From positions 92,384 through 156,383 of IMG/VR virus record IMGVR_UViG_3300020463_002440: DNA of 64,000 nucleotides; one strand, given 5' to 3'. Numbering within the stretch: the stretch's first letter is position 1; every line of letters begins with the position of its first letter. Of the stretch, positions 50,427 through 63,797 are shown in pieces. This stretch comes from a virus. The notes beneath the pieces were generated by a model. That model saw only the letters and a program-made list of their open reading frames with translations, did no database searches and was not told the origin of the DNA. Made by a program: the position numbers and the translations under genes.

Positions 50427-50928
50427 CACCAGTTGACCCAACACCACCTTTTCGGTCAGTTTTTTGAGTCGGTTGCGTATTTGTTTCTTTTATTTTTATT
50501 TGGTTTACTTCAGCTAATCTACATTGTGCCAATCTTTCACCATCATGTACATTGACTAAACTATCTGATATATTATGTACAATAATATGCGTTTCGTCAA
50601 CATAATCAGAATCAATTATACCAACACTATTTACTAATGTCAATCCTCTTTTCGTTGCTACACTTGAACGAATAAACATTTCCATTACATGATTGTCTGG
50701 AATGTCGAAGATTAATCCGGTTGGTATAAGTACTCTTGTTTCAGGCGGAACCTGAATTGTTGGTTTACCATTTTTTAATTTAATTAAAATTGGTATTTCT
50801 TTATTCCAAGCATCGTATCCTTTAATGCGCTCGCCTACTGTTAAACAAACTTTTATATCAAAGCATGCTGAACCTTTGGTTGCGTATTCAGGAAGTGTTG
50901 CGTTATCTCGTACTTTATATACATTCAT
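50422..50928 (-). CDS. dut: Trimeric dUTPase
   Basis: GSACFDI, IPTGL, IRSS, NSVGIIDSDY, GERLAQ, RKGGVGSTG (motifs I-V). Confidence 0.95.
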   Translation of the reverse strand: MNVYKVRDNATLPEYATKGSACFDIKVCLTVGERIKGYDAWNKEIPILIKLKNGKPTIQVPPETRVLIPTGLIFDIPDNHVMEMFIRSSVATKRGLTLVNSVGIIDSDYVDETHIIVHNISDSLVNVHDGERLAQCRLAEVNQIKIKETNTQPTQKTDRKGGVGSTGV

Positions 50929-50954: not shown

Positions 50955-50983
50955 ATTATACAACAGTTCTTTAGAAATGTCAA
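50955..50983 (-). promoter_or_regulatory. Sigma70 consensus early promoter
   Basis: CTATTGACA-N17-TATAAT upstream of dut. Confidence 0.85.
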
Positions 50984-53072: not shown

Positions 53073-53357
53073 TTAACTATCAACAACTTTGTCAGCTAAA
53101 GGAGCATCTCCACCAGCCATAACATCAACACCAGTTTCAGCAACACTATTGTCTTGCTGTTGTGGAGCATTCTGTCTTAGGAATGTTTCTACTTTATTTC
53201 GTAACATTCCGACGCCGGCAAGTTCTTGCCCTTGGAACCCACCACGTTGCGCACAGATATCAATTATCTGTAGTAACGTAGAAAGGTCACCAAGGTTGAT
53301 CTCAACCTTTTGCTCTTGGCCTTGTTGGCCAAAATTACCTTGTACTGCTTCATTCAT
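53073..53357 (-). CDS. Conserved T4-like hypothetical protein
   Basis: INLGDL..L.QIIDIC..RG.F...EL..VG; ATG at 53357 preceded by AGGTGA. Confidence 0.7.
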   Translation of the reverse strand: MNEAVQGNFGQQGQEQKVEINLGDLSTLLQIIDICAQRGGFQGQELAGVGMLRNKVETFLRQNAPQQQDNSVAETGVDVMAGGDAPLADKVVDS

Positions 53358-53362
53358 ATGAA

Positions 53363-54025
53363 TCACCTTTTATTATAAGTCGACTTTGAATCAATTGCCA
53401 CATAATATGTGACGCCTTCTCCTTTAAATTCTGAGATACCTTTTGAACAAAGAGTAACCTCATAATCTAAAGGCATTAATTTCAAGTTATCGGTCTTAAT
53501 GATAATCTTGAATTCATCGTCAGTGTCGCCGATTTCAACGCCAAAGTCATCTGCGTTATCGTTAGCACTGTCGATTGCTTTCAGATAGCATTTGCCGCTT
53601 TCGCCTACAAACGCAACTTCTGAAAATTGTAATACCCCTGCTGCCTTCAATACAGAAGACAAATCTCCATTAGATACACTTACTACAACATCTGCTTCAG
53701 GAATTGTTATATCCTTCTCAGGTGGTGTATGTATCATGGATAGATCAGCATAAACGTATTTAGTCCTACGCTTACCTTCTGAGATAATAAAATATTTATC
53801 AAAGAATTCAACGTCGGGATCATTATATAGAGATAAAATTGATAAAAATCTTGATAGGTCATAAACACATGCATCTGATGGAATTACATCAGGTATGTTT
53901 GCTATCGCAATCAATGTTTTCTCTGGAGTTATTGTCTTAAGAACACTACCTTCTTTCATCAAGATTGACTTGTTGATAGCGGTAAAGCTTTTAAGAACTG
54001 TCAAGGTTTCGTTAGAAAATTTCAT
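53363..54025 (-). CDS. gp45: Sliding clamp gp45
   Basis: MKFSNETLTVLKSF..IN.SI....G; YDLSRFL; KTDNLKL...DY.V; YYVA. Confidence 0.95.
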   Translation of the reverse strand: MKFSNETLTVLKSFTAINKSILMKEGSVLKTITPEKTLIAIANIPDVIPSDACVYDLSRFLSILSLYNDPDVEFFDKYFIISEGKRRTKYVYADLSMIHTPPEKDITIPEADVVVSVSNGDLSSVLKAAGVLQFSEVAFVGESGKCYLKAIDSANDNADDFGVEIGDTDDEFKIIIKTDNLKLMPLDYEVTLCSKGISEFKGEGVTYYVAIDSKSTYNKR

Positions 54026-54060: not shown

Positions 54061-54089
54061 ATTATATACCAATTACTTGGACTTGTCAA
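54061..54089 (-). promoter_or_regulatory. Sigma70 consensus early promoter
   Basis: CTATTGACA-N17-TATAAT; the -35 box lies in the last codons of the upstream gene. Confidence 0.85.
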
Positions 54090-54942
54090 TAGGGTTATAA
54101 GCTTTCTTTTTAGATTTATCATCCGCAGTAGCCGTTACTCCTAATTGACCTAGACTTCCCATATCGCCTTTAAAGATATAAGAACCGACATGGTTAATTT
54201 TCATCCAAGGACACATCGTTACTGATAGGCCTGCTTTACGAGCCATCTTACAGAAGAAGTAATCTTCGGATAGATACCTTTTTGATTCTTCGTCTATGAC
54301 GCAATCAAAGAAGGCATGTATTTCTCGAGAGCCATCAAAATTGTCGTTACGAATATGGTCAGGTACATATGACAATTCAGGATAAGCTTCTTTATACTTT
54401 TCTAAAGCCTCTCTTGTAATTAACATAAAACCAGTTCCACCTTCGGCAACTTCAACAGGCTCCGAGAGTTTAAATTGTTTTAGTCCTTTAACAGGATTAA
54501 AGACAAAATCTGATGTAAACTTTTCAAGGTCAAAAGGATTGTCTGTACCAATACCTTGTTGTGCAGCTACTGCAACCTTTTCCCAAGCAATTGTTTTCTT
54601 TGGATATGGACCACAAACGATATCATATTTGTCTGGGTCTGAAATTTGTAATGCAAGTAATGCCAACGCATCTCTTGGATCAAATCCAATATCCGAATCA
54701 ATAAACAATAAATGAGAACAGTCCGAACGAAGAAATTCATCTACGATATAATTCCTTGCTCTTTGAACTAGACTCTCATTAAATAAAAAATAGTATTTCA
54801 TTGGAATCTTATGGGCTGAACATAACATACTTAAATCATTTGTTGATTTTGTATATATGCCTGCACACTGACCACCATACATAGGTGTACCAATGAATAG
54901 TCGTTGTTTTGCTAAATCTTCTGTTTTTACTTCAAGCTTCAT
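54073..54942 (-). CDS. GT-A fold glycosyltransferase-like protein
   Basis: IGTPMYGG, NESLVQRARN, LLFIDSDI (DxD), GTGFMLI, YLSEDYFFC. Confidence 0.75.
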   Translation of the reverse strand: MKLEVKTEDLAKQRLFIGTPMYGGQCAGIYTKSTNDLSMLCSAHKIPMKYYFLFNESLVQRARNYIVDEFLRSDCSHLLFIDSDIGFDPRDALALLALQISDPDKYDIVCGPYPKKTIAWEKVAVAAQQGIGTDNPFDLEKFTSDFVFNPVKGLKQFKLSEPVEVAEGGTGFMLITREALEKYKEAYPELSYVPDHIRNDNFDGSREIHAFFDCVIDEESKRYLSEDYFFCKMARKAGLSVTMCPWMKINHVGSYIFKGDMGSLGQLGVTATADDKSKKKAYNPIDKSK

Positions 54943-55577
54943 ACTCTTATTTGCCCCATATCATTTTCAGCTCTTACAATACTTTGTAATCTCATTACAT
55001 CTGCAAGTATATCCCATGAACTGTCGTGTGCTTTAAATACTGAATCCCATTTCTCGTCGTTTTCACAAGGAGCGAATCCATTCTTCTTTAATTCAAAATT
55101 GAACTTTGCATCAATATATGTTCTTGTATCTCTTACAGACCAATACTTAAGATGCTGTTCCATGTGTTGTAATTTGTTTTGTGATTGAAATAGTCGAGAC
55201 AATATCATAGGATCAAAAGTATTTGACCTAGACCACCAGTATTTGATAGTAGGTGCCTCAATTAAAAAATCAGTAAATTGTTTTACAAAATCTTCAACTG
55301 TCAAATCAGAACTTTTCGGAGCAATGTTTCTTTTTACTTCTTTAGGTTGCTCGTTCCAAAATGCCAATGTGTTGGAATCTATTTCCCAACCATATTTTTG
55401 TACTTGTTCTTTGATGTTTAGTTTGAACTTACGACACTTGCTTATATCAGCTAATGTGTAAGGATCGTTAGATACCATCTTGTCCCAATTGAATACCATT
55501 GCTGATATATCAATGACAGCACATTTATTTACGTCCTGTCCCATTGTTTCGAAGTCGATGATTAGATCATTTCTCAT
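54939..55577 (-). CDS. dexA: DexA-like 3'-5' exonuclease (DEDDh)
   Basis: LIIDFET, TL.FW..Q, WSR...FD, W.VRDTRT, HDS..D...D. Confidence 0.85.
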   Translation of the reverse strand: MRNDLIIDFETMGQDVNKCAVIDISAMVFNWDKMVSNDPYTLADISKCRKFKLNIKEQVQKYGWEIDSNTLAFWNEQPKEVKRNIAPKSSDLTVEDFVKQFTDFLIEAPTIKYWWSRSNTFDPMILSRLFQSQNKLQHMEQHLKYWSVRDTRTYIDAKFNFELKKNGFAPCENDEKWDSVFKAHDSSWDILADVMRLQSIVRAENDMGQIRV

Positions 55578-55600
55578 ATATTTTTCCTATTCAATGTACC

Positions 55601-55629
55601 ATTATACAACAATACGGACTGAATGTCAA
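55601..55629 (-). promoter_or_regulatory. Sigma70 consensus early promoter
   Basis: CTATTGACA-N17-TATAAT upstream of dexA. Confidence 0.85.
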
Positions 55630-55633
55630 TAGT

Positions 55634-56857
55634 TTATGCAAAGAATTCTTCAAGGTTTGGAGTTGTGTCTGTTCCGTTTGGATCATGCTCCATAAGTTGT
55701 TTTAAATTATTCTGTCTTAAATAAGTTGTTTCAGACAAATCAAGTTCTCCGTTGAGAAACTTACCAATTTCCAAATGCATATCTCTTGAAGTTGGTACAG
55801 GGCAATTCTGAGCAATATGATTCATCTTCTTTAATCCATCAAGTAACTCAAAGTCTTCTGGGAATCCCATCATATGTAATGCTTCACGAATTGTTAATGA
55901 TCTTTCTTCTTTTGGATGAATTGTATCAACCATATTACGACCAATCACTGCATTCATATATTCACCAAAGACGTGAACTGAACCATCCCATACTCCTTTA
56001 CCGTCTGCATACTTTTTAATTGCATGGTCGGAATACTTAATACCTTTTTCATGTCCTGTTTTATGAAACCATTCGTTAGCTTCTTTCATCCAACCTTTTT
56101 TGTTTACATAATTTAAAGTTGTCTTAACTCCTTCTTCAACCATTAACTCACGAATATCGCGATTTGTTTTTGTTTTAATAAAATTATAGTAAGGTTCTTC
56201 AGGTACATTCTTATTAATAATAATGTCTTGATGTAAAGCATCTGCAGGTATTTCTTGAAGATATTCGGCAAAGTCTTTTCTATCACGATTATAATAATTC
56301 ATAACAGGTGATGATTCTGATTTCCAACCAATCGCAAAACATCTGTCACGACCTTGTGGAACTCCATGAAATCTTGTTGATGTTTTAAATAGGGTTAATG
56401 AATATCCTCGTTCTTTACAAATTTCATAAAGGTTGTTTGCGACAGGTCGACCTTTGTTTGTAAATAGTGCAGGAGCGTTTTCAACAATAACTACCTTTGC
56501 TCCAAGAATATCAATACCATCTCTAAAGACCATATACATAAAATCGTTCTTTGCACATTTAGCGCCTTTTGATTCTTCACTTAATCCAGTATTTAACTGA
56601 GATAGAGCAGCACAAGGTGGAGTACCTGTTACCACATCAACCTTTTTAATTTTAGGATTATCTGAATCTAATAGGACATAAGGAATATCACGTCCTTTTG
56701 TATTTTGTTGATAATTGACATAATGCCCATCATTAGCTTCAAATCCACCATAAGAGTAGATTGCTTCAGGTGGTTTACCAAATGCCTTCTCTGCTCCTAA
56801 ACCTTGTCCACCGATAAGTGGAATCAGTGGTGCCCATGTTATTTCTTTTTTACTCAT
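55634..56857 (-). CDS. DNA cytosine-C5 methyltransferase-like protein with atypical motif I and C-terminal clamp-binding tail
   Basis: TPPCAALS (IV), VENAP (VI), GVPQGRDRCF (VIII), RSLTIRE..MGFP (IX); motif I region reads IPLIGGQGLG; ends NLEEFFA. Confidence 0.8.
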   Translation of the reverse strand: MSKKEITWAPLIPLIGGQGLGAEKAFGKPPEAIYSYGGFEANDGHYVNYQQNTKGRDIPYVLLDSDNPKIKKVDVVTGTPPCAALSQLNTGLSEESKGAKCAKNDFMYMVFRDGIDILGAKVVIVENAPALFTNKGRPVANNLYEICKERGYSLTLFKTSTRFHGVPQGRDRCFAIGWKSESSPVMNYYNRDRKDFAEYLQEIPADALHQDIIINKNVPEEPYYNFIKTKTNRDIRELMVEEGVKTTLNYVNKKGWMKEANEWFHKTGHEKGIKYSDHAIKKYADGKGVWDGSVHVFGEYMNAVIGRNMVDTIHPKEERSLTIREALHMMGFPEDFELLDGLKKMNHIAQNCPVPTSRDMHLEIGKFLNGELDLSETTYLRQNNLKQLMEHDPNGTDTTPNLEEFFA

Positions 56858-58113
56858 CCGAAAAAGTCCTCAAGTGTAGCAGCCGTTTTCTTTTCGTATT
56901 GAGATACATCAGGAGCGACATAATCTTCATCAATGGCTGTCATAATTTTATTATTCAAAAAAGTACCATCATAATATTCAGGCTTACATATTAATTTACG
57001 CAATCCTTTTATTACTTGTTGATACTCTCCTTCGTTATCTAATAACCTTTGCATTCTTTCTTTAAATTCTGCAGGTGTCTTAGGTCTTAAAAAATCTGGT
57101 ATAGGTAAATGATTTTGCTCATCATAAGATGGATGCAAGAATGGTATCACACCAGCATGTACCATTTCAATATACTTTGAAGTTACCCAACCTTTTGCGA
57201 TTGGAATAATAAAAGTAAATTTAACATTGTTCATTTTTTCCATTACATCATCAAGATGAATAGATCCTTTAAATCGTGAATCGGTTGTAGTATTATCATG
57301 ATCCCATTTGCCGTAAATCTCAACATCATCGAAATCATCGAGTACCCATTCTTTTAATAAGTTATATCTTGAAGGCTTTGCTTCATTTAATATAACCATG
57401 AATGGTACACTACGCATTATATTAAATGCTTCTTTATACGGATAGTTTACGCAAAAGCAAGTTTCCATACCTTCATAGGTTGATTTTACTTTTCTTTCGT
57501 ATCTGTGTTGATCTTCATAATCTTTAATACTACTTACTTCGTATTCGTAATCGTATTGACCTAATGATTTATTTGGTAAATGAAATATGTCTCTTGATTG
57601 ATTCATTACATATCTTGGATCATTTACAATTTCAACATAAGGTGGCTGAACTTCGTTTAACCAAATTGAAATGGGTGATGTATAATTCTTAGTCATATCA
57701 ATCACAGAAGCTGGTTTACCATCAGTGATACCTTCTTTCAAATGTTTTACTTGAGTAATCTTTCCAGGAATTGTAACTGTTCCTACTTGACCTACCATCA
57801 TTATTGTATAGTCTAACTGAAATCCTTTTTGATTAAAGTAATCTATCACATGACGATAAAAGTTGTCATCATCATTGTTTTTAATGCCTTTCCAAATATC
57901 AATTACATTGTCATACGGAAACAAATCCAATACTTCAGATTCATTTAGAGTACTGAAGTCAGAGCGACCTATAATATAAAAGGTCTTATCAGGGTTATTA
58001 TTTGCTAAAGATATTAGAACTGTAGATGGTTCGTTGTCTCCACCAATAGGAGAGAATCGAGTGCGTTTGAATTTGACCGACTTACCGATCTTTGCGAATC
58101 CAATGTTTTTCAT
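56854..58113 (-). CDS. GT-B-like glycosyltransferase, candidate DNA (hmC) transferase
   Basis: N-terminal GGD, EIYGKW and WVTSKYIE...GVIPF (GT-B nucleotide-binding half); ends TLEDFFG; near gp42. Confidence 0.65.
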   Translation of the reverse strand: MKNIGFAKIGKSVKFKRTRFSPIGGDNEPSTVLISLANNNPDKTFYIIGRSDFSTLNESEVLDLFPYDNVIDIWKGIKNNDDDNFYRHVIDYFNQKGFQLDYTIMMVGQVGTVTIPGKITQVKHLKEGITDGKPASVIDMTKNYTSPISIWLNEVQPPYVEIVNDPRYVMNQSRDIFHLPNKSLGQYDYEYEVSSIKDYEDQHRYERKVKSTYEGMETCFCVNYPYKEAFNIMRSVPFMVILNEAKPSRYNLLKEWVLDDFDDVEIYGKWDHDNTTTDSRFKGSIHLDDVMEKMNNVKFTFIIPIAKGWVTSKYIEMVHAGVIPFLHPSYDEQNHLPIPDFLRPKTPAEFKERMQRLLDNEGEYQQVIKGLRKLICKPEYYDGTFLNNKIMTAIDEDYVAPDVSQYEKKTAATLEDFFG

Positions 58114-58136
58114 AATATAAAATATCCGTGTTATTT

Positions 58137-58571
58137 TTATTTATCAGAACTGACTACACGCTGTCTAAGCTCTGTTGAACTAAAGGAATGTCTTCTTCTG
58201 TTATAATGAACAGGACAAAGACCTTTACCTGTATGTTCTTGATCTTTATATTCTTCTCCAACAATACGAATGTCAGGATTAATTGTTAATATCATATCAA
58301 CGATTTCTTGTTCAGTTGTAAAAGGTATAACCTCATCTACATATTTACAAGATGATACCTGTATGTATCTTTCAAAAGGTGTTTGTATCGGCTTGTTCTT
58401 TGCATCAGGACGATCTACGGTTGGGTCTATTAATAAACCACAAATCAAATAATCACAAAGAGTCTTTGCTTCTTGTAACATAACGATATGCCCTGCGTGA
58501 AATAAATCAAACGTAGAACATGTAAATCCGACTTTATAATCGGATGGTAGTTTCTTTCTATCTAAAAACAT
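58137..58571 (-). CDS. Cytidylyltransferase (TagD/glycerol-3-phosphate CT-like)
   Basis: STFDLFHAGH (HxGH), CDYLICGL, YVDEV, RRHSFSST. Confidence 0.88.
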   Translation of the reverse strand: MFLDRKKLPSDYKVGFTCSTFDLFHAGHIVMLQEAKTLCDYLICGLLIDPTVDRPDAKNKPIQTPFERYIQVSSCKYVDEVIPFTTEQEIVDMILTINPDIRIVGEEYKDQEHTGKGLCPVHYNRRRHSFSSTELRQRVVSSDK

Positions 58572-58581
58572 ATTTTCTCCA

Positions 58582-59613
58582 TTACATAATCTCTGCCATT
58601 ACATCGTTTACACACTGTATAATAAAATCTTTATCAGGATGATACTTATATACTCTTACAATTTCAGAAGCGACGGTTGTCCATACTTCTTTGTCATTTA
58701 AGTTGTTATATAAACATAATACCTTTAGAGATTCATTTTGTAATTCTACAGGATAACGATTAATGATTAAACTTGCTACGAATTTGGATATATCTAATTG
58801 TGTATTTCCAAACGCTGATGGGATAGGGTCAATTAAGTGCATGTTACAGTCATTAAATAACATATTCTTAACACCAAAATCTCCATGTGAAAAGGACGGT
58901 GATTGATGTGGTAATTCTACAAGACGATCAACGATATCTTCAAAAGCAGAAACACCTGTTGGTTTAACGTGTTTTACAATTCTTCCAATATAATCATCCC
59001 ATACTAAATCCACAGGAGGATTCGCAATATGCTTCATTGATTCTAATGCTTGTTGAATTAAACCAAAAGCCATATAACGATTTTGTAATAAGTAATCTTC
59101 TTGATGCTCGATGTACTCCATTGTAATTGTATCACCAACAACACGATCTATTCTTGGAGTATTAAGTAAACCTTTTGTATATTCAAACCAAGCCGCAGCT
59201 TCATGAGCATTACTTGCTGTCTTATGAACAAGTTTACCGTCAGTGTAAATATCAGAACCAGATAGACCGCCCTCTAACTCTCTTATATTGGCCTCTAAAA
59301 ATAACTCAGGTGTAATACCTTTGTCATCAATGTAATAGGCACCAAGAGGCTTATCGAAACTCAGAACTCCATATTGAACACCATTCTGTTTAAGCCAGTC
59401 TTCAATTTGTGGACGATACTTTTTATCAGCATCTTCTCGAGTTTTACAAGAAATGGATCCGCGAGCAGTAAAAATATCTACTTGCCATCCTGCGTCAAAT
59501 AATGAATTACACTTTTCTATTAACGCCGTGTTAGGCTTTGCATTTGCCCAATCACGATTTGACGTGTATGCAAGTGTATCATCAAAATCTAAAATGATTC
59601 TTTTATTATACAT
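58582..59613 (-). CDS. HAD phosphatase (EcbF-like) fused to APH/choline-kinase-like domain
   Basis: LDFDDTL, FTARG, KP..YYIDDK; C-terminal HGDFGVKNMLF and LIDP. Confidence 0.8.
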   Translation of the reverse strand: MYNKRIILDFDDTLAYTSNRDWANAKPNTALIEKCNSLFDAGWQVDIFTARGSISCKTREDADKKYRPQIEDWLKQNGVQYGVLSFDKPLGAYYIDDKGITPELFLEANIRELEGGLSGSDIYTDGKLVHKTASNAHEAAAWFEYTKGLLNTPRIDRVVGDTITMEYIEHQEDYLLQNRYMAFGLIQQALESMKHIANPPVDLVWDDYIGRIVKHVKPTGVSAFEDIVDRLVELPHQSPSFSHGDFGVKNMLFNDCNMHLIDPIPSAFGNTQLDISKFVASLIINRYPVELQNESLKVLCLYNNLNDKEVWTTVASEIVRVYKYHPDKDFIIQCVNDVMAEIM

Positions 59614-59626
59614 TGTTTCTTAAATT

Positions 59627-59833
59627 TTACTTTTTAAATAGAATTGATCTTGTTAAGCTACCAAAGGCCCAACAAAAATATGCAAACAGTGGAGCGGCAA
59701 TCATTAATTTAATAGTATCATCCATTAAACCAACAAGCTTCATAAATCCAATGAGAATTGCCATTGTGCATGCGATAGCTCCTACTGCTAGGATTCCGAA
59801 TAAAACGTCTTTTGCGATTTCTTTCAAGTTCAT
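59627..59833 (-). CDS. Small two-helix membrane protein
   Basis: Two hydrophobic segments; SD AAGGA; early promoter upstream. Confidence 0.65.
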   Translation of the reverse strand: MNLKEIAKDVLFGILAVGAIACTMAILIGFMKLVGLMDDTIKLMIAAPLFAYFCWAFGSLTRSILFKK

Positions 59834-59860
59834 AATATAGTCCTTCTAATTTTAAATACT

Positions 59861-59889
59861 ATTATAACACAGTTAGGAGTCTTTGTCAA
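59861..59889 (-). promoter_or_regulatory. Sigma70 consensus early promoter
   Basis: CTATTGACA-N17-TATAAT. Confidence 0.85.
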
Positions 59890-60631
59890 TAGCAAATCCT
59901 GATTCTACGTCATAATGTGGTATATCTATTTCTTCCACCCAGTTAACTTGTTTATTATATGGTCTCCATTTATCTCTAACGAAATAATCTTCCATACATA
60001 TTAGTTCTCCTGGATATAATTTATATAGCCATTTCATTCGTTCGTAATTGTCTCTTATTTGATTAATACAATTTGGAACAGTGACTACACCCATTCCTCC
60101 ATTTAAGAATGGATCATTAGGATCTACTTCAACAATATGTTTTTCATCCTTTCCTAATAAACCTAGGTGTTGTTCTCTAATTCTTTCGTATGTAAAGTTA
60201 TTACTTTGATATTTAAATCCTGTTTTACCAAAGTCTCCCCATCTTCGAACGGCAATCCAACTTTTACAAGTTGCTTCAAAATCTCTACGATACAAATAAT
60301 AGATCTTATCTACTGATTCTAAGATCTGTTTTATAATATAATCGTCTCTTACTTGCCAAGGCATAATCTTAAAACAGAGTTGTGTTGAAGGATTTCTTAA
60401 CTCAGTCATTAGATTAGCATCACTCTGTATAAGATCAAGTATCTCATACTGCATTATCTGATATGACTGTTGTAGTTCTATACGAGACGGTATAGATCCA
60501 ACTCTTTGTGCCTTTTCATGACTAAACGCTTCACCACCATAAGGTAAGTCGTATTCCTCAGCCTTCATTAATGTAAAAGTAGTAGAAGCAGTTCTATAAT
60601 TACATACAATTGCTATTTTATTAGTGTTCAC
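59873..60631 (-). CDS. Sulfotransferase-like (Stf0-type) protein
   Basis: YRTASTTF (5'-PSB loop-like), CFKIMP, YLYRRD......SW (3'-PB-like). GTG at 60631 is preferred over the track start at 60667. Confidence 0.6.
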   Translation of the reverse strand: MNTNKIAIVCNYRTASTTFTLMKAEEYDLPYGGEAFSHEKAQRVGSIPSRIELQQSYQIMQYEILDLIQSDANLMTELRNPSTQLCFKIMPWQVRDDYIIKQILESVDKIYYLYRRDFEATCKSWIAVRRWGDFGKTGFKYQSNNFTYERIREQHLGLLGKDEKHIVEVDPNDPFLNGGMGVVTVPNCINQIRDNYERMKWLYKLYPGELICMEDYFVRDKWRPYNKQVNWVEEIDIPHYDVESGFAIDKDS

Positions 60632-61073
60632 GTTCTTTAAGAAACTCCGTATGTACTCCGGCCTCAATAAACATTTTATTAGATTTATGAAATGACTCTA
60701 ACCACTTTTGCGGTATATCATCAGCAGCCATAACAATTTTATTTATGCCCACTTGAATAATTCCTCTTGCACAATTGTGGCAAACTGGTAAACCCCAAAC
60801 ATACATCGTTGCTCCTTTTAATGATATTCCATTATATGTAGCATTATATATGCAATTCATTTCGGCATGAACAACCAAGTCGTATTTAACACTCTTATTT
60901 TCATAACGATAAGCAGCATCTTCAATACCTTTAGGAAATCCATTATAACCAGTTGCGAGTATACGACGTTCAGAATTAACTGCCACCGCTCCTATTTGCG
61001 TTGAAGGATCTTTACTCCAAGTTGAGATTTCTCGAGCAAGTCTAATAAATCTTTTATCCCACTTTTCTATCAT
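60621..61073 (-). CDS. cd: dCMP deaminase
   Basis: WSKDPSTQIGA, TGYNGFP, VHAEMN, PVCHNC; ATG at 61073 with GAGGA SD. Confidence 0.93.
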   Translation of the reverse strand: MIEKWDKRFIRLAREISTWSKDPSTQIGAVAVNSERRILATGYNGFPKGIEDAAYRYENKSVKYDLVVHAEMNCIYNATYNGISLKGATMYVWGLPVCHNCARGIIQVGINKIVMAADDIPQKWLESFHKSNKMFIEAGVHTEFLKEREH

Positions 61074-61728
61074 TAATAAGTTCCTCAATAAAGTTGAAGT
61101 GCCTTTCGTAAACATGAAAGTTTGATGCTGTCCAAATGAGATCACCTGTACTTACATCAAGATCGGCAGCCAACTTTTCTTGAACATATTTAGCCCAAGC
61201 ATAATCGTTATTATAACCAAAGACTGCGTCGTTAGAACGCATTAAGTAATGTGAATGTAGTAAACCATCGCGAATATAAAAAGTATTTGCATAGGTACAC
61301 ATAAAGTCATTCATACCATCTCTTGTCATATCAACATGCATTGTTGGTCTATTATAAATCATAGTTGCTCTTCGAGAGTTTGGATTGTTTCTCAACTCTT
61401 TTTCAACATGAGCGTACTGACTACCATTGTCTTCAGAAAAAATACACCAACCATAATTAGAATTGATTTCACCTTCGGTTGAAGCAATGTCTTTCCAAAT
61501 TTGTGGAGTTTCTCCAGGAATATCATTTACATTCAATGATTCAGATTCATACCATTGTAATTCACGTTTAATATATTCATATGCAGGTTTACGGACAATA
61601 TGATCTTCTTCAGCAAGAAATGTTGCACCAATGATTTCAATTGTTTTTGCACCTGTCCTATCAATAACAAAATCTTCATCAAGATATTTGTCAATAATAA
61701 GTTGTCTGATATTTCCTACTGTTAACAT
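61054..61728 (-). CDS. gp42: dCMP hydroxymethyltransferase (T4 gp42-like thymidylate synthase homologue)
   Basis: INSNYGW, DFMCT and MRSNDAVFGYNNDYAW: Asp sits at the position equivalent to ThyA Asn177, the cytosine-specifying residue as in T4 gp42. Confidence 0.9.
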   Translation of the reverse strand: MLTVGNIRQLIIDKYLDEDFVIDRTGAKTIEIIGATFLAEEDHIVRKPAYEYIKRELQWYESESLNVNDIPGETPQIWKDIASTEGEINSNYGWCIFSEDNGSQYAHVEKELRNNPNSRRATMIYNRPTMHVDMTRDGMNDFMCTYANTFYIRDGLLHSHYLMRSNDAVFGYNNDYAWAKYVQEKLAADLDVSTGDLIWTASNFHVYERHFNFIEELINDRKVG

Positions 61729-61982
61729 TATATTGTTTCCATTAAAGCTTCTATGTCTGATACTTCAGCAACTAGGTCTGAAACATTTTGATTATGAAAG
61801 GCTCTTGCGGTCTTTCTTAGTATTGATTTTGGAATCTGTACTTCTTCGGCCAAAGAATTAATTGCTTCTTTTTGAAAATCACGTTCTGATTCCATTCTTG
61901 TAAATGAATTACTCATTTCTTCCATGCATCCGCGGATACGCTTTTTGTCTTCGTCACTTGAAGGTAATATTACATTACTCAT
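61728..61982 (-). CDS. dsbA: DsbA-like dsDNA-binding protein
   Basis: E.S....R.E.E.D..KE......E...PK....K.A...H.QN pattern of the T4 DsbA family. Confidence 0.7.
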   Translation of the reverse strand: MSNVILPSSDEDKKRIRGCMEEMSNSFTRMESERDFQKEAINSLAEEVQIPKSILRKTARAFHNQNVSDLVAEVSDIEALMETI

Positions 61983-62325
61983 TATCTATTCTCCTGTTAA
62001 AAATATCATTTTTGGTATTCTGACCTTCTATACCTTGGCGGCAGTATGCCACAAAGAATGATGTATAGTTGATTAGATCTTTGGCTGAATCCTCAAGAGA
62101 TTCAAAATTTGGTTCGTAATCATCACCTTGCATTGCTTCCATTACAGATTTCATACGTAGCATTTTTGCATGCATGATATCGTGAATAGTAATTACACCA
62201 TTAGGATAATAGTCTGCTTGGTGAACAGTGCTGTTTGGATTTTGATAATCTCGAGATTTTTTCAATTGAAGGTCAACGCATTCTTGTAATACATTAACAC
62301 TTTCTTTAGTTGGCTTTTCTGCCAT
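61975..62325 (-). CDS. All-alpha nucleotide-modification-associated protein (DUF1599/Nmad1-like, MazG superfamily)
   Basis: LQLKKSRDY...K..R...ESLEDS.KDLINY. Confidence 0.7.
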   Translation of the reverse strand: MAEKPTKESVNVLQECVDLQLKKSRDYQNPNSTVHQADYYPNGVITIHDIMHAKMLRMKSVMEAMQGDDYEPNFESLEDSAKDLINYTSFFVAYCRQGIEGQNTKNDIFNRRIDNE

Positions 62326-62350
62326 AAGGATACCTCATAATAAAAATTAT

Positions 62351-62379
62351 ATTATAACAAAATTGACACTGATTGTCAA
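62351..62379 (-). promoter_or_regulatory. Sigma70 consensus early promoter
   Basis: CTATTGACA-N17-TATAAT. Confidence 0.85.
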
Positions 62380-62855
62380 TAGTCAATTTCATATTTTAAA
62401 AATAACTCCGTAGCTTCAACACATTTGCTATCAGTTGAGTTGTAACTTGCTGACCAACGAATATTGTCAGGACAATTACCTTTTGAATTTGGAGTGTCTA
62501 AAAACGCAAACATATCATCATGAGGAATCATAGATATACGATACTTATTTTCCTCTAACGAAGAGGCATCTACCAATGCAAACCAATCACAGCCACTTCT
62601 CTTACACATTAAACTCCAAGCACCTAGTTTGCCTTCGGTTGGTTTGTTTGCTGTTTTTACTTCGATTCGACCAGGATATCTTGTTTTACCAAGAACGTCA
62701 AATTTACCGTTTACTGATTCACCTTCAGTGAGACTGACGATTTGTGATTCTCCTATAGATCCTACAAGTGATTTATACAAATCGTCAGTTCCACATAATT
62801 TGCCATCTCTATGAAGACTCATTGCTTCGTTGAGCAATTTGGTCAAATTATTCAT
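62376..62855 (-). CDS. PD-(D/E)xK-family nuclease-like protein
   Basis: G.IGE...FDV......RIEVKT. Confidence 0.6.
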   Translation of the reverse strand: MNNLTKLLNEAMSLHRDGKLCGTDDLYKSLVGSIGESQIVSLTEGESVNGKFDVLGKTRYPGRIEVKTANKPTEGKLGAWSLMCKRSGCDWFALVDASSLEENKYRISMIPHDDMFAFLDTPNSKGNCPDNIRWSASYNSTDSKCVEATELFLKYEIDY

Positions 62856-62888
62856 AATGTAATGTCCATTAATTTAATTTATAGATCT

Positions 62889-62917
62889 ATTATAATCTAT
62901 ATCATAAAGAATGTCAA
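62889..62917 (-). promoter_or_regulatory. Sigma70 consensus early promoter with inverted repeat around the -10 box
   Basis: CTATTGACA-N17-TATAAT; TATAGAT/ATCTATA arms at 62880-62886 and 62895-62901. Confidence 0.85.
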
Positions 62918-62920
62918 TAG

Positions 62921-63007
62921 TTATTTAAGAACTTTGTTCCAAATATATTGCACTCTACAAGATTTCATCATCTTATGAAATTGCTTGAAACTTGAAAAAT
63001 ATTTCAT
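62921..63007 (-). CDS. 28-aa basic peptide MKYFSSFKQFHKMMKSCRVQYIWNKVLK
   Basis: ATG with AGGA SD; sits downstream of a TATAAATA promoter and a structured leader; fills an otherwise empty gap. Confidence 0.55.
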   Translation of the reverse strand: MKYFSSFKQFHKMMKSCRVQYIWNKVLK

Positions 63008-63121
63008 ATTGTTTTCCTGCTGTATTTTGCGAGCAAAGAATCAACACTACTATAGTAATGTCTTCTTTGTTTTTGAATGTAACACTTGTGAAACTGTAAT
63101 GTTACAGTCGTGTTACAAAAT

Positions 63122-63129
63122 TATTTATA
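63122..63129 (-). promoter_or_regulatory. Late promoter TATAAATA
   Basis: Exact match, intergenic. Confidence 0.65.
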
Positions 63130-63154
63130 CAGAGAATTCTATAAAGAGATGAAT

Positions 63155-63382
63155 TTATACTACTTTTGGTGGAATTACAGCAGCAAATTGTTTGACAGAA
63201 TGTAATTTACCTTCTGCTTCCTCTAATTTCGCTACTTCTGTATCAATAGTCTCAAGCATGCCTGGATGATCAGCTACACCGACTCCATTTTCTAAAAATA
63301 AAGTAATGTTTGCTCTTGCCTCAGCAGACTGTGCTTCGTACTTTGAGATTAATGCGTTTACTAATACGTCTTTAAGTGCCAT
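63155..63382 (-). CDS. Conserved hypothetical protein of marine T4-like phages
   Basis: A.ANI..FL.N.VGV..H...LE.I..E pattern; SD AGGAG. Confidence 0.7.
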   Translation of the reverse strand: MALKDVLVNALISKYEAQSAEARANITLFLENGVGVADHPGMLETIDTEVAKLEEAEGKLHSVKQFAAVIPPKVV

Positions 63383-63797
63383 AGTATTCTCCTTTTAATG
63401 TTGGCAGGATACCATGATTACCTTCATGAGATGGAGCTGTCCATCCTTCAGGTTTCATTAAGTCAGGTAGTCCTAGTGGATTTGGCCGTGCTTCCTTTAT
63501 ACCAGGTTCTTTGGCCATGTTTGCTTTGAGAACTGAATCCCAAGCTTTATAGGGATCGACTCCGAAGGCATCGAGAGTACCGATTGCCACTACACAAAGG
63601 TCAACTAAACCATCAACGATTTCCTCGGAGTCGATAACTTTTTGAGCAGTTCTTGTTTCTTCAAGTTCTTCTTGTAGGAAGTCTACTCGAAAACGCAAGA
63701 ACGCTTTCAATTGATTTATATCTGCATTTTCAATCCAATCATGTGTTTTATATTTGGATTGCATTTCGTTAATATCTTTTACCCAGTCTTTGCTCAT
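63372..63797 (-). CDS. MazG-like/PRA-PH-like NTP pyrophosphohydrolase (candidate dCTPase/dUTPase)
   Basis: FLQEELEE...EIVDGLVDL..V..G...V..ANMAK...KPEGW..P. Confidence 0.8.
   Translation of the reverse strand: MSKDWVKDINEMQSKYKTHDWIENADINQLKAFLRFRVDFLQEELEETRTAQKVIDSEEIVDGLVDLCVVAIGTLDAFGVDPYKAWDSVLKANMAKEPGIKEARPNPLGLPDLMKPEGWTAPSHEGNHGILPTLKGEYYGT

Follow-up and report, generated by a model that had tools for sequence, protein, structure and literature searches.

What kind of DNA base would be built by a phage that carries, among its replication genes, a deoxycytidylate (dCMP) hydroxymethylase of the gp42 type, a set of sugar-activating enzymes, and a glycosyltransferase of the GT-B fold? 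The question is raised by a gene cluster at positions 54073-63797 of the window analyzed here, which is the whole 64,000-nucleotide stretch forming the last 64 kb of IMGVR_UViG_3300020463_002440, a 156,383-bp linear IMG/VR viral contig (GC content 35.6%) with a CheckV completeness of 73%. Homologues of RegA, gp62, gp44, and gp45 lie directly downstream of the cluster, and the phage is therefore T4-like. A preliminary description of this DNA had listed eleven co-oriented genes as a candidate pathway, and all eleven are present on the minus strand within the cluster (Table 1).

The reading favored here, with a probability of about 0.68, is that the cluster encodes an early-expressed cytosine hypermodification of a marine T4-like phage. 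A gp42-type enzyme would provide 5-hydroxymethylcytosine (5hmC), the phage would itself activate a sugar, most likely a heptose, and a transferase resembling T4 beta-glucosyltransferase (BGT) would join the two. The expected benefit is phage DNA that would be shielded from restriction enzymes and CRISPR nucleases.

A Probable gp42-Type Route to 5-Hydroxymethylcytosine

The identity of the base depends on the thymidylate synthase (TS) homologue of the cluster. This protein aligns with T4 dCMP hydroxymethylase (1b49) at about 52% identity, and the catalytic Cys, the DFMC motif, and RSNDAVFGYNND all align. Its RSND...ND motif has Asp at ThyA positions 169 and 177, like the T4 enzyme. The first of these positions separates two kinds of phage enzyme. 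The RB69-type enzymes make 5-hydroxy-dCMP (5hodCMP), and Asn at ThyA position 169 marks the 5hodCMP synthases (Lee et al. 2026, PMC13326640). The signature of the 5-hydroxymethyl-dCMP synthases consists of the catalytic Cys, Asp177 for cytosine specificity, an acidic residue at position 143, and Asp rather than Asn at 169 (PMC13326640), and the homologue in the window carries all of it. In the same register RB69 gp48 reads RSQN, while T4, the window, Pseudoalteromonas phage XG4 (vB_Psh_XG4, PP712099), and all 29 related contigs read RSND or RSCD. Since Asp169 is kept and is not the Asn of the RB69 type, the base precursor should be 5-hydroxymethyl-dCMP (5hm-dCMP).

The genes around this enzyme fit a reshaping of the nucleotide pool. 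The open reading frame (ORF) of the dCMP deaminase spans 60621-61145, although the true start is likely at 61073. The tandem MazG profile phrog_18404 matches the 116-amino-acid protein with its C-terminal half and the 141-amino-acid protein with its N-terminal half. The 141-amino-acid MazG protein is a candidate for the clearing of dCTP, where it would do the work of T4 gp56 without being homologous to it, and the two MazG-type pyrophosphohydrolases may together replace gp56. In the proposed first step, the MazG-type pyrophosphatases and the dCMP deaminase would reshape the deoxycytidine pool, and the gp42-type enzyme would convert dCMP to 5hm-dCMP, which would then be incorporated in place of C; strong homology is the basis for this step. 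A Tet_JBP domain, the mark of the other route to 5hmC, was found neither in the contig nor in the complete relatives. The preliminary description had identified the same genes: its gp42-type hydroxymethylase with a cytosine-specifying Asp is borne out by the 1b49 alignment and the motifs, its dCMP deaminase by Pfam (6e-20), and its two MazG-superfamily proteins by profile matches, in the second case by PHROG only.

Proposed Donor Synthesis and Transfer

Three adjacent genes would make and transfer the sugar. The HAD domain of the 343-amino-acid HAD-kinase protein has an intact DxDxT motif and matches PDB entries 9iqw (2e-10) and 1xpj (5e-9) as well as TIGR01689. Of these, 1xpj is given by Lee et al. 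2026 (PMC13326640) as the structure that the phosphatases of RB69 and DLP3 match; 9iqw is titled only "capsule biosynthesis protein," and its code falls in the 9iq/9ir series that includes HY126 glycosyltransferase entries. The HAD-kinase protein is 33% identical to RB69 gp51. Its C-terminal two-thirds carry the HGDxxxxN loop of the APH/choline-kinase-fold enzymes, here HGDFGVKN, and this kinase domain aligns with the C-terminal kinase domains of the AfhE type (hhalign 94%, E 1e-7).

The 144-amino-acid nucleotidyltransferase that follows has its best NCBIfam match in TIGR02199, rfaE_dom_II (domain II of HldE, a heptose-1-phosphate adenylyltransferase), at 1.3e-20, with TagD at 3e-13; in the comparison with ADP-heptose biosynthesis all scores fall short of the curated equivalog thresholds. 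Its nearest PDB sequences are the cytidylyltransferases for ethanolamine-phosphate (3elb, 5e-22) and glycerol-3-phosphate (1coz, 8e-14). The same family occurs in Acinetobacter phage Ab1-TPeters and Vibrio phage Va1 without HAD-kinase, GT-B, or TS neighbors, so that its presence alone does not mark the pathway.

The transferase was assigned by fold. Pfam gives the GT-B protein sub-threshold matches only, T4-Gluco-transf (PF09198) has no match in the genome, and BLAST of the protein against the T4 alpha- and beta-glucosyltransferases gives no match. An AlphaFold2 (AF2) model, built from an alignment of 88 relatives out of a family of 451 clusters at 50% identity, has a mean predicted confidence (pLDDT) of 96.3. 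T4 BGT is its top match both in Foldseek (E 3.5e-9) and in VIA, where it scores Z 23.4 over 312 aligned residues at a root-mean-square deviation of 3.4 Å. The VIA runners-up are GT4 enzymes at Z 19.6, T4 alpha-glucosyltransferase at 18.3, and the HY126 glycosyltransferase at 17.4, leaving T4 BGT a lead of ~4 Z; the structural alignments with T4 BGT show 10-14% identity. Distant GT-B homologues (P0193, P0257) lie on unannotated or very short contigs.

In the second step of the proposed pathway, the APH-like kinase domain would add a phosphate at the anomeric carbon of a sugar phosphate taken from the host, the HAD domain fused to it would strip the distal phosphate, and the cytidylyltransferase-family enzyme would form the nucleoside-diphosphate (NDP) sugar, following the logic of the ADP-heptose pathway. 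Homology and the published reconstitution of the same enzyme trio are the basis for this step. In the third, the BGT-like GT-B would attach this sugar to 5hmC in DNA. A heptose is the most likely sugar, with a pentofuranose as the alternative. With a DNA-type GT-B and donor enzymes of its own, the phage should make an adduct other than plain glucose derived from UDP-glucose.

The published trio comes from contig 53, which encodes a bifunctional HAD-like/APH-like enzyme, a cytidylyltransferase, and a GT-B with the architecture of T4 BGT (Pyle et al. 2023, bioRxiv 10.1101/2023.12.21.572611). In E. coli all three were required for mono- and di-heptosyl-5hmC (bioRxiv 10.1101/2023.12.21.572611). 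The same study found that metavirome GT-B clusters are linked more often to TS homologues than to TET and often lie near genes for dCMP deaminase, the gp45 clamp, methyltransferases, and APH proteins (bioRxiv 10.1101/2023.12.21.572611). The core of what the preliminary description had called a candidate novel 5hmC hypermodification pathway therefore has a bench-tested counterpart. The cluster stands and its 5hmC route is supported; the novelty of the trio does not, having been reconstituted by Pyle et al. in 2023. The further proposals that the phage encodes its own donor activation and that a GT-B-like transferase adds a group other than glucose are supported, the former by the kinase, phosphatase, and nucleotidyltransferase and the latter by the BGT-like fold together with these donor genes.

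Conservation Across Related Phages

The arrangement was followed in 56 IMG/VR loci whose GT-B is 61-90% identical to that of the window; each ratio given here counts the loci with enough flanking sequence. A gene for a methyltransferase (MTase)-like protein follows GT-B in 45/45 loci, and a HAD gene precedes it in 47/49. A gp42-type gene lies upstream in 19/19, DexA follows in 39/41, and the phrog_1574 gene in 32/32. The grouping of the cluster genes is not due to chance. The sugar module and gp42-type genes recur together in over 100 viral contigs. Neighborhood conservation and co-occurrence with gp42 in relatives, named in the preliminary description as a check on the proposal, thus bear it out, the gp42-type gene being present in every locus where it could be scored.

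Two arrangements of the donor genes can be told apart. The window belongs to group A, in which 29 of 30 loci have the HAD-kinase fusion together with the cytidylyltransferase. In group B the HAD gene stands alone and a MurU-like nucleotidyltransferase is fused to the kinase, as in the RB69/AfhE arrangement, and the cytidylyltransferase is found in 0/23; the group includes a complete 201-kb genome (L036). Phage XG4 shares its arrangement, with gp42-type, GT-B, and MTase-like genes beside RB69-like donor enzymes. A search with the HAD-kinase fusion returned 60 loci, and those at 35-55% HAD-kinase identity still have the cytidylyltransferase, a gp42-type TS, the deaminase gene cd, MazG, a GT-B relative, and the MTase-like gene. 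The donor pair also occurs outside this setting. In the marine phage IMGVR_UViG_3300020383_000006 (L098:5769-10207), a TET/JBP oxygenase and a TET-associated glycosyltransferase are followed immediately by a HAD-kinase (50% identity) and a cytidylyltransferase (70%), and no gp42-type gene was found within ±8 kb of the locus. The donor pair beside TET in this phage indicates that the cassette is used with both routes to 5hmC.

Cultured phages carry related clusters. Enterococcus phage 9183 (L002:5263-11794, MT939241.1), a phage of a Gram-positive host, has a thymidylate kinase, a TS homologue with Asp169 and Asp177, a dUTPase, a HAD protein, a nucleotidyltransferase-kinase fusion, and a GT-B 30% identical to that of the window. 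The arrangement is that of group B, and it looks like an unstudied 5hmC-sugar cluster in a cultured phage. In phage XG4 (L001:4238-5344) and one group-B subgroup (L052:11254-12381), a second glycosyltransferase-like gene is inserted between the GT-B and MTase-like genes, a hint of a disaccharide there.

A Methyltransferase-Like Partner and Shared C-Terminal Tails

The constant companion of the transferase is a protein resembling C5-cytosine methyltransferases, and its start codon overlaps the GT-B stop by 4 nucleotides. The motifs PPC (GTPPCAALS), ENAP (VENAP), QxRxR (PQGRDR), RSLTxRE..GFP, and IAQNxP are invariant in 21 members and are kept at 30-38% identity, so that the PC cysteine of motif IV, motif VI, and the QxRxR of motif VIII are all in place. 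The cofactor side of the protein is different. Motif I, the S-adenosylmethionine (SAM)-binding motif, reads IPLIGG in the window and [IV]PLIGG family-wide down to 30% identity where methyltransferases have FxGxG, and motifs II and III show no conservation of their acidic residues. The Pfam DNA_methylase alignment begins past motif I, skipping the N-terminal cofactor region.

The distribution of the gene adds to this picture. It is absent from the genome of the TET-route phage L098 with the same donor genes. Members of the same subfamily (IPLVGG, PPC, ENAP) occur in S-TIM5-like cyanophages (S-TIM54, OP053362.1, L067:4063-8152), two genes from a "ThyA" that has Asp at ThyA positions 169 and 177 (RSNDMATGVPLD); a 560-amino-acid protein without a Pfam match lies between the two. 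The MTase-like gene thus appears to track cytosine-specific TS homologues and not TET. The S-TIM5-like cyanophages may carry an unrecognized cytosine modification in cultured phages; a literature search on S-TIM5 found no data on its DNA modification.

The transferase and its partner also share a C-terminal tail. Among 180 contig ORFs, only GT-B (TLEDFFG) and the MTase-like protein (NLEEFFA) end in L[ED][EDQ]FFx, and the two tails are kept in all related loci. The DNA polymerases of the relatives end in T[IL]E[DS]FF[SM], for example TIEDFFS or TLESFFS, and T4 gp43, which grips the gp45 clamp by its tail, ends in SLDFLFG. In two distant lineages the GT-B and MTase-like tails change together, KSFIK with GKFIKK and KKLF with KSLF. 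A complex prediction of the gp45 trimer with the last 42 GT-B residues scored 0.46 with a control at 0.37 and was counted for neither side. From their polymerase-like tails we infer that both proteins dock on the sliding clamp, and GT-B and the MTase-like enzyme probably ride gp45 behind the replication fork.

The partner could be an ordinary SAM-dependent cytosine methylase that acts on residual unmodified C or serves another end such as sequence-specific protection, with only a loose link to the sugar pathway. A Pfam score of 85 bits, well over threshold, the recognizable motifs IV, VI, VIII, IX, and X, and the GG left in motif I all speak for an ordinary methylase, yet C5 is already occupied wherever 5hmC replaces C, every member has the altered motif I and lacks conserved acidic residues in motifs II and III, and the Pfam alignment passes over the cofactor region. 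The 45/45 adjacency, the stop/start overlap with GT-B, and the common tail are also hard to reconcile with a loose link, as is the absence from a TET-route phage carrying the same donor genes. An ordinary methylase is therefore a possible but rather doubtful account. A bolder and distinctly less probable idea is a clamp-tethered enzyme that is no methylase, in which Cys would attack C6 and a SAM-independent or other-cofactor chemistry would follow on 5hmC or glycosyl-5hmC, with the sulfotransferase-like protein of the cluster sulfating the DNA sugar in some phages. If this speculation were true, it would be a DNA base chemistry new to description. Always beside the transferase and with a polymerase-like tail, the MTase-like partner is a candidate for new DNA-modifying chemistry and for enzyme tools.

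Weighing the Alternatives

Several points weigh against the proposed heptosylation of 5hmC or against parts of it. The phage is known from metagenomes only. Neither a homologue of the T4 gp56 dCTPase nor a nucleotide kinase of the T4 gp1 or Pfam thymidylate-kinase type was found in the 73%-complete contig or in the complete 201-kb relative, which leaves a gap between hm-dCMP and hm-dCTP that a divergent kinase might fill. A sugar isomerase of the SIS type was found neither in the contig nor in the complete relatives, so the sugar phosphate must come from the host. PDB sequence matches of the nucleotidyltransferase favor phospho-alcohol cytidylyltransferases. Sister phages with GT-B 61-63% identical use a MurU-like nucleotidyltransferase instead, which makes the nucleotide carrier, and perhaps the sugar, uncertain. 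Finally, the likeness to contig 53 consists in the same HAD-APH/cytidylyltransferase/GT-B trio, adjacent in one operon here, and is one of domain architecture alone.

Heptose is best regarded as a well-founded guess by analogy with contig 53. A pentofuranose could take its place in an otherwise unchanged pathway. One candidate is the D-arabinofuranose of the Afh pathway (RB69, DLP3, HY126), which would here start from host arabinose-5-phosphate and end in arabinosyl-5hmC. The matches of the HAD domain to 9iqw and RB69 gp51 and the homology of the kinase domain to AfhE-type kinases point in this direction, as do L036, XG4, and Enterococcus phage 9183, which pair an orthologous GT-B with an AfhE-like nucleotidyltransferase-kinase and a separate HAD protein. 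However, no arabinose-5-phosphate isomerase was found in the contig or the complete relatives, the nucleotidyltransferase belongs to another family whose best curated match is a heptose enzyme, and the sole HAD-APH/cytidylyltransferase/GT-B trio to have been reconstituted yielded heptose. A pentofuranose is accordingly unlikely, if a serious competitor. An adduct of another kind, a phospho-group placed on 5hmC from a CDP-activated polyol or amino-alcohol phosphate, draws on the PDB matches of the nucleotidyltransferase to ethanolamine-phosphate and glycerol-3-phosphate cytidylyltransferases and on a kinase fold common to choline and ethanolamine kinases. Against it, a fused HAD phosphatase is sensible only with a bis-phosphorylated sugar intermediate, the transferase is BGT-like and not TagF-like, and the published trio yielded heptose. 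The polyol-phosphate adduct suggested in the preliminary description is thus less likely than a sugar, given the homology of the HAD and kinase domains to the sugar-phosphate enzymes AfhF and AfhE and the BGT-like transferase, and the phospho-group is the least probable of all the accounts considered.

Scarcely better placed is the view that the donor genes and glycosyltransferases act on host lipopolysaccharide (LPS) or virion proteins and not on DNA. In marine T4-like phages of SAR11, rfaE and glycosyltransferases have been assigned to LPS-related functions (Zaragoza-Solas et al. 2020, PMC7029224), and the cytidylyltransferase family occurs in many phages without the cluster. In this phage, however, the genes lie in an early operon amid replication genes, the GT-B is closest to T4 BGT, its translation is coupled to that of a DNA cytosine enzyme, and both of these proteins have the polymerase-like tail. 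The gp42-type gene accompanies them in 19/19 loci, and in another phage the donor pair stands beside TET and a TET-associated glycosyltransferase. Action on the cell surface or the virion is very improbable on this evidence, and a sugar on 5hmC, most likely a heptose, is the reading retained here.

Genome Setting and Accessory Genes

The contig ends directly past the MazG gene, at a place where relatives have the DNA polymerase gene; gp43, gp41, and uvsX therefore lie off the contig. No near-identical phage genome turned up when the region was compared by megablast with 50,697 phage records. Marine pelagimyophages have been described with curli genes, two thymidylate synthases and a dCMP deaminase, and "rfaE" (PMC7029224), and a SAR11-type host is possible; a literature search on pelagimyophages and hydroxymethylase found nothing. 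A few kilobases upstream of the cluster, relatives have genes for a beta-ketoacyl synthase and for the phosphate-binding protein PstS (L052:2808-4031, L036:2235-3278), which are among the auxiliary metabolic genes that marine phages typically carry.

Perfect TTGACA-17-TATAAT sites number 7 in the window against 0.07 expected by chance. All 7 are on the coding strand, between genes, at 50.6-62.9 kb in the early replication region, and the phage appears to use textbook sigma-70 early promoters. The hydrophobic 68-amino-acid ORF that begins the donor/transferase operon is weakly conserved in relatives (39-60% identity), just upstream of the HAD-kinase gene. A 97-amino-acid ORF at 53073-53366, between gp45 (53363-54025) and gp44, recurs in 30 related loci, and Caulobacter phage Cr30 has its counterpart in the same position.

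Two further genes of the cluster are peripheral to it. The AF2 model of the sulfotransferase-like protein (pLDDT 91.5) has the sugar sulfotransferase Stf0 as its top VIA match among 48,161 chains at Z 10.1, with kinases next at 8.5; Foldseek against the PDB gives nothing below 1e-3, and there is no Pfam match. The conserved NxRTxST and YLYRRDF..KS are motif-like when set against the 5'-PSB and 3'-PB motifs that bind PAPS (3'-phosphoadenosine-5'-phosphosulfate). The gene is present in 8/56 relatives, and what occupies its position between cd and the donor genes varies. A 222-amino-acid gene in the same slot of the complete 201-kb relative (L036:7544-8212) was considered as a relative and rejected as unrelated at 17% identity; its protein has an NPPY motif, like adenine or N4-cytosine methylases.

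The GT-A-like gene was removed from the pathway. Its phrog_1574 orthologues, 43-56% identical, lie between gp46 and gp45 in phage Cr30, Sinorhizobium phage phiM12, and Stenotrophomonas phage DLP_6, and in Cr30 no gp42-type TS was found, only a distant ordinary TS. This conservation beside gp45 and gp46 in phages without a gp42-type gene makes it unlikely that the GT-A protein extends the adduct, as had been proposed.

Table 1 Features of the proposed cytosine-modification cluster and its surroundings in the window
Feature	Position	Strand	Basis or remark
GT-A-like protein, phrog_1574	54073..54942	minus	phrog_1574 3e-57; Pfam E 1.5e-3, below cut-off; atlas lead
DexA-like 3'-5' exonuclease	54939..55577	minus	PF16473 1.5e-19; 31% identity to T4 DexA
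C5-cytosine-methyltransferase-like enzyme, 407 amino acids, NLEEFFA tail	55634..56857	minus	PF00145 85 bits
GT-B DNA glycosyltransferase (putative), BGT-like, 419 amino acids, C-terminal TLEDFFG tail	56854..58113	minus	AF2 model and fold matches
Cytidylyltransferase-family nucleotidyltransferase, 144 amino acids	58137..58571	minus	PF01467 7e-15; HxGH and SST motifs
Bifunctional HAD phosphatase (residues 1-110) and APH-like sugar-phosphate kinase (about 115-343)	58582..59613	minus	PDB, NCBIfam, hhalign
Hydrophobic (membrane-like) ORF, 68 amino acids, first gene of donor/transferase operon	59627..59833	minus	Sequence
Accessory sulfotransferase-like protein, 252 amino acids from GTG start	59873..60631	minus	Modest support: structure, motifs, atlas lead
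dCMP deaminase, about 150 amino acids from internal ATG	60621..61073	minus	Pfam PF00383 6e-20; 150-amino-acid orthologue in L030
gp42-type dCMP hydroxymethylase, 224 amino acids	61054..61728	minus	PDB 1b49 E 1.4e-71
T4 DsbA-like DNA-binding protein (weak), 84 amino acids	61728..61982	minus	Pfam PF11126 E 4.3e-4, below cut-off
Second MazG-like all-alpha pyrophosphohydrolase, 116 amino acids	61975..62325	minus	phrog_18404 5.4e-13, PHROG only
Protein of 159 amino acids, function unassigned, own perfect promoter (62889-62917)	62376..62855	minus	No Pfam, PHROG, or NCBIfam match; no P-loop
MazG/PRA-PH-type NTP pyrophosphohydrolase, 141 amino acids	63372..63797	minus	Pfam PF01503 1.8e-9; phrog_671 4e-21
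P54089 promoter	54061-54089	minus	TTGACA-17-TATAAT; serves gp45
P55629 early promoter	55601..55629	minus	TTGACA-17-TATAAT; serves DexA and GT-A-like genes
P59889 early promoter	59861..59889	minus	TTGACA-17-TATAAT; serves operon of 68-amino-acid ORF, HAD-kinase, cytidylyltransferase, GT-B, and MTase-like genes
P62379 early promoter	62351..62379	minus	TTGACA-17-TATAAT; serves second MazG, DsbA-like, gp42, cd, and sulfotransferase-like genes
Other perfect promoters	50615-50643, 50955-50983, 62889-62917	minus	TTGACA-17-TATAAT

Comparison with Known Systems

Phages with sugar-coated cytosines evade restriction enzymes and CRISPR nucleases, and standard sequencing and cloning break on such bases. 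If the pathway proposed here is real, metagenomes may under-count or mis-call a fraction of marine viral DNA.

Among the closest known systems is the glucosyl-5hmC system of T4. The two have in common gp42 (about 52% identity), the dCMP deaminase, DexA, the BGT fold, and an early replication-gene neighborhood. T4 uses host UDP-glucose and has neither donor-synthesis genes nor a C5-MTase-like partner, whereas in the window no gp1 or gp56 homologue was found.

The donor genes invite comparison with two other pathways. The Afh pathway (RB69, DLP3, HY126; PMC13326640), on which a literature search found nothing beyond Lee et al. 2026, has the same logic from sugar-5-phosphate through sugar-1,5-bisphosphate and sugar-1-phosphate to the NDP-sugar, and its HAD phosphatase and APH-like kinase domain are homologous to those of the window. 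Its base, however, is 5-hydroxycytosine made by a D169N flavin enzyme, while the window keeps Asp169. It also uses an arabinose-5-phosphate isomerase and a MurU-like nucleotidyltransferase fused to a kinase; the window has neither and so falls outside the Afh group. Here the kinase is fused to the HAD domain, the nucleotidyltransferase is of the HldE/TagD family (PF01467), and the glycosyltransferases have no detectable sequence similarity. ADP-heptose biosynthesis (GmhA, HldE, GmhB) has the same order of kinase, HAD phosphatase, and adenylyltransferase of the cytidylyltransferase fold, and the nucleotidyltransferase of the window matches best to HldE domain II. The ADP-heptose kinase is ribokinase-like, while that of the window is APH-like and comes without a GmhA-type SIS isomerase.

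Contig 53 (Pyle et al. 2023, subclass III) makes its 5hmC after replication with a methyltransferase and a TET-type dioxygenase (5mYOX/TET), whereas the window has a gp42-type enzyme and no TET. The window also adds a sulfotransferase-like gene and an atypical MTase-like partner. A heptose-type donor module that has so far been shown only in a rebuilt TET-route pathway would thereby be placed in abundant uncultured marine T4-like phages of the gp42 route, among which sister lineages swap the nucleotidyltransferase and keep the transferase. What is new in this locus is the joining of a donor and transfer module of the contig 53 type to the prereplicative route of the T4 type, together with the MTase-like partner and an optional sulfotransferase-like gene.

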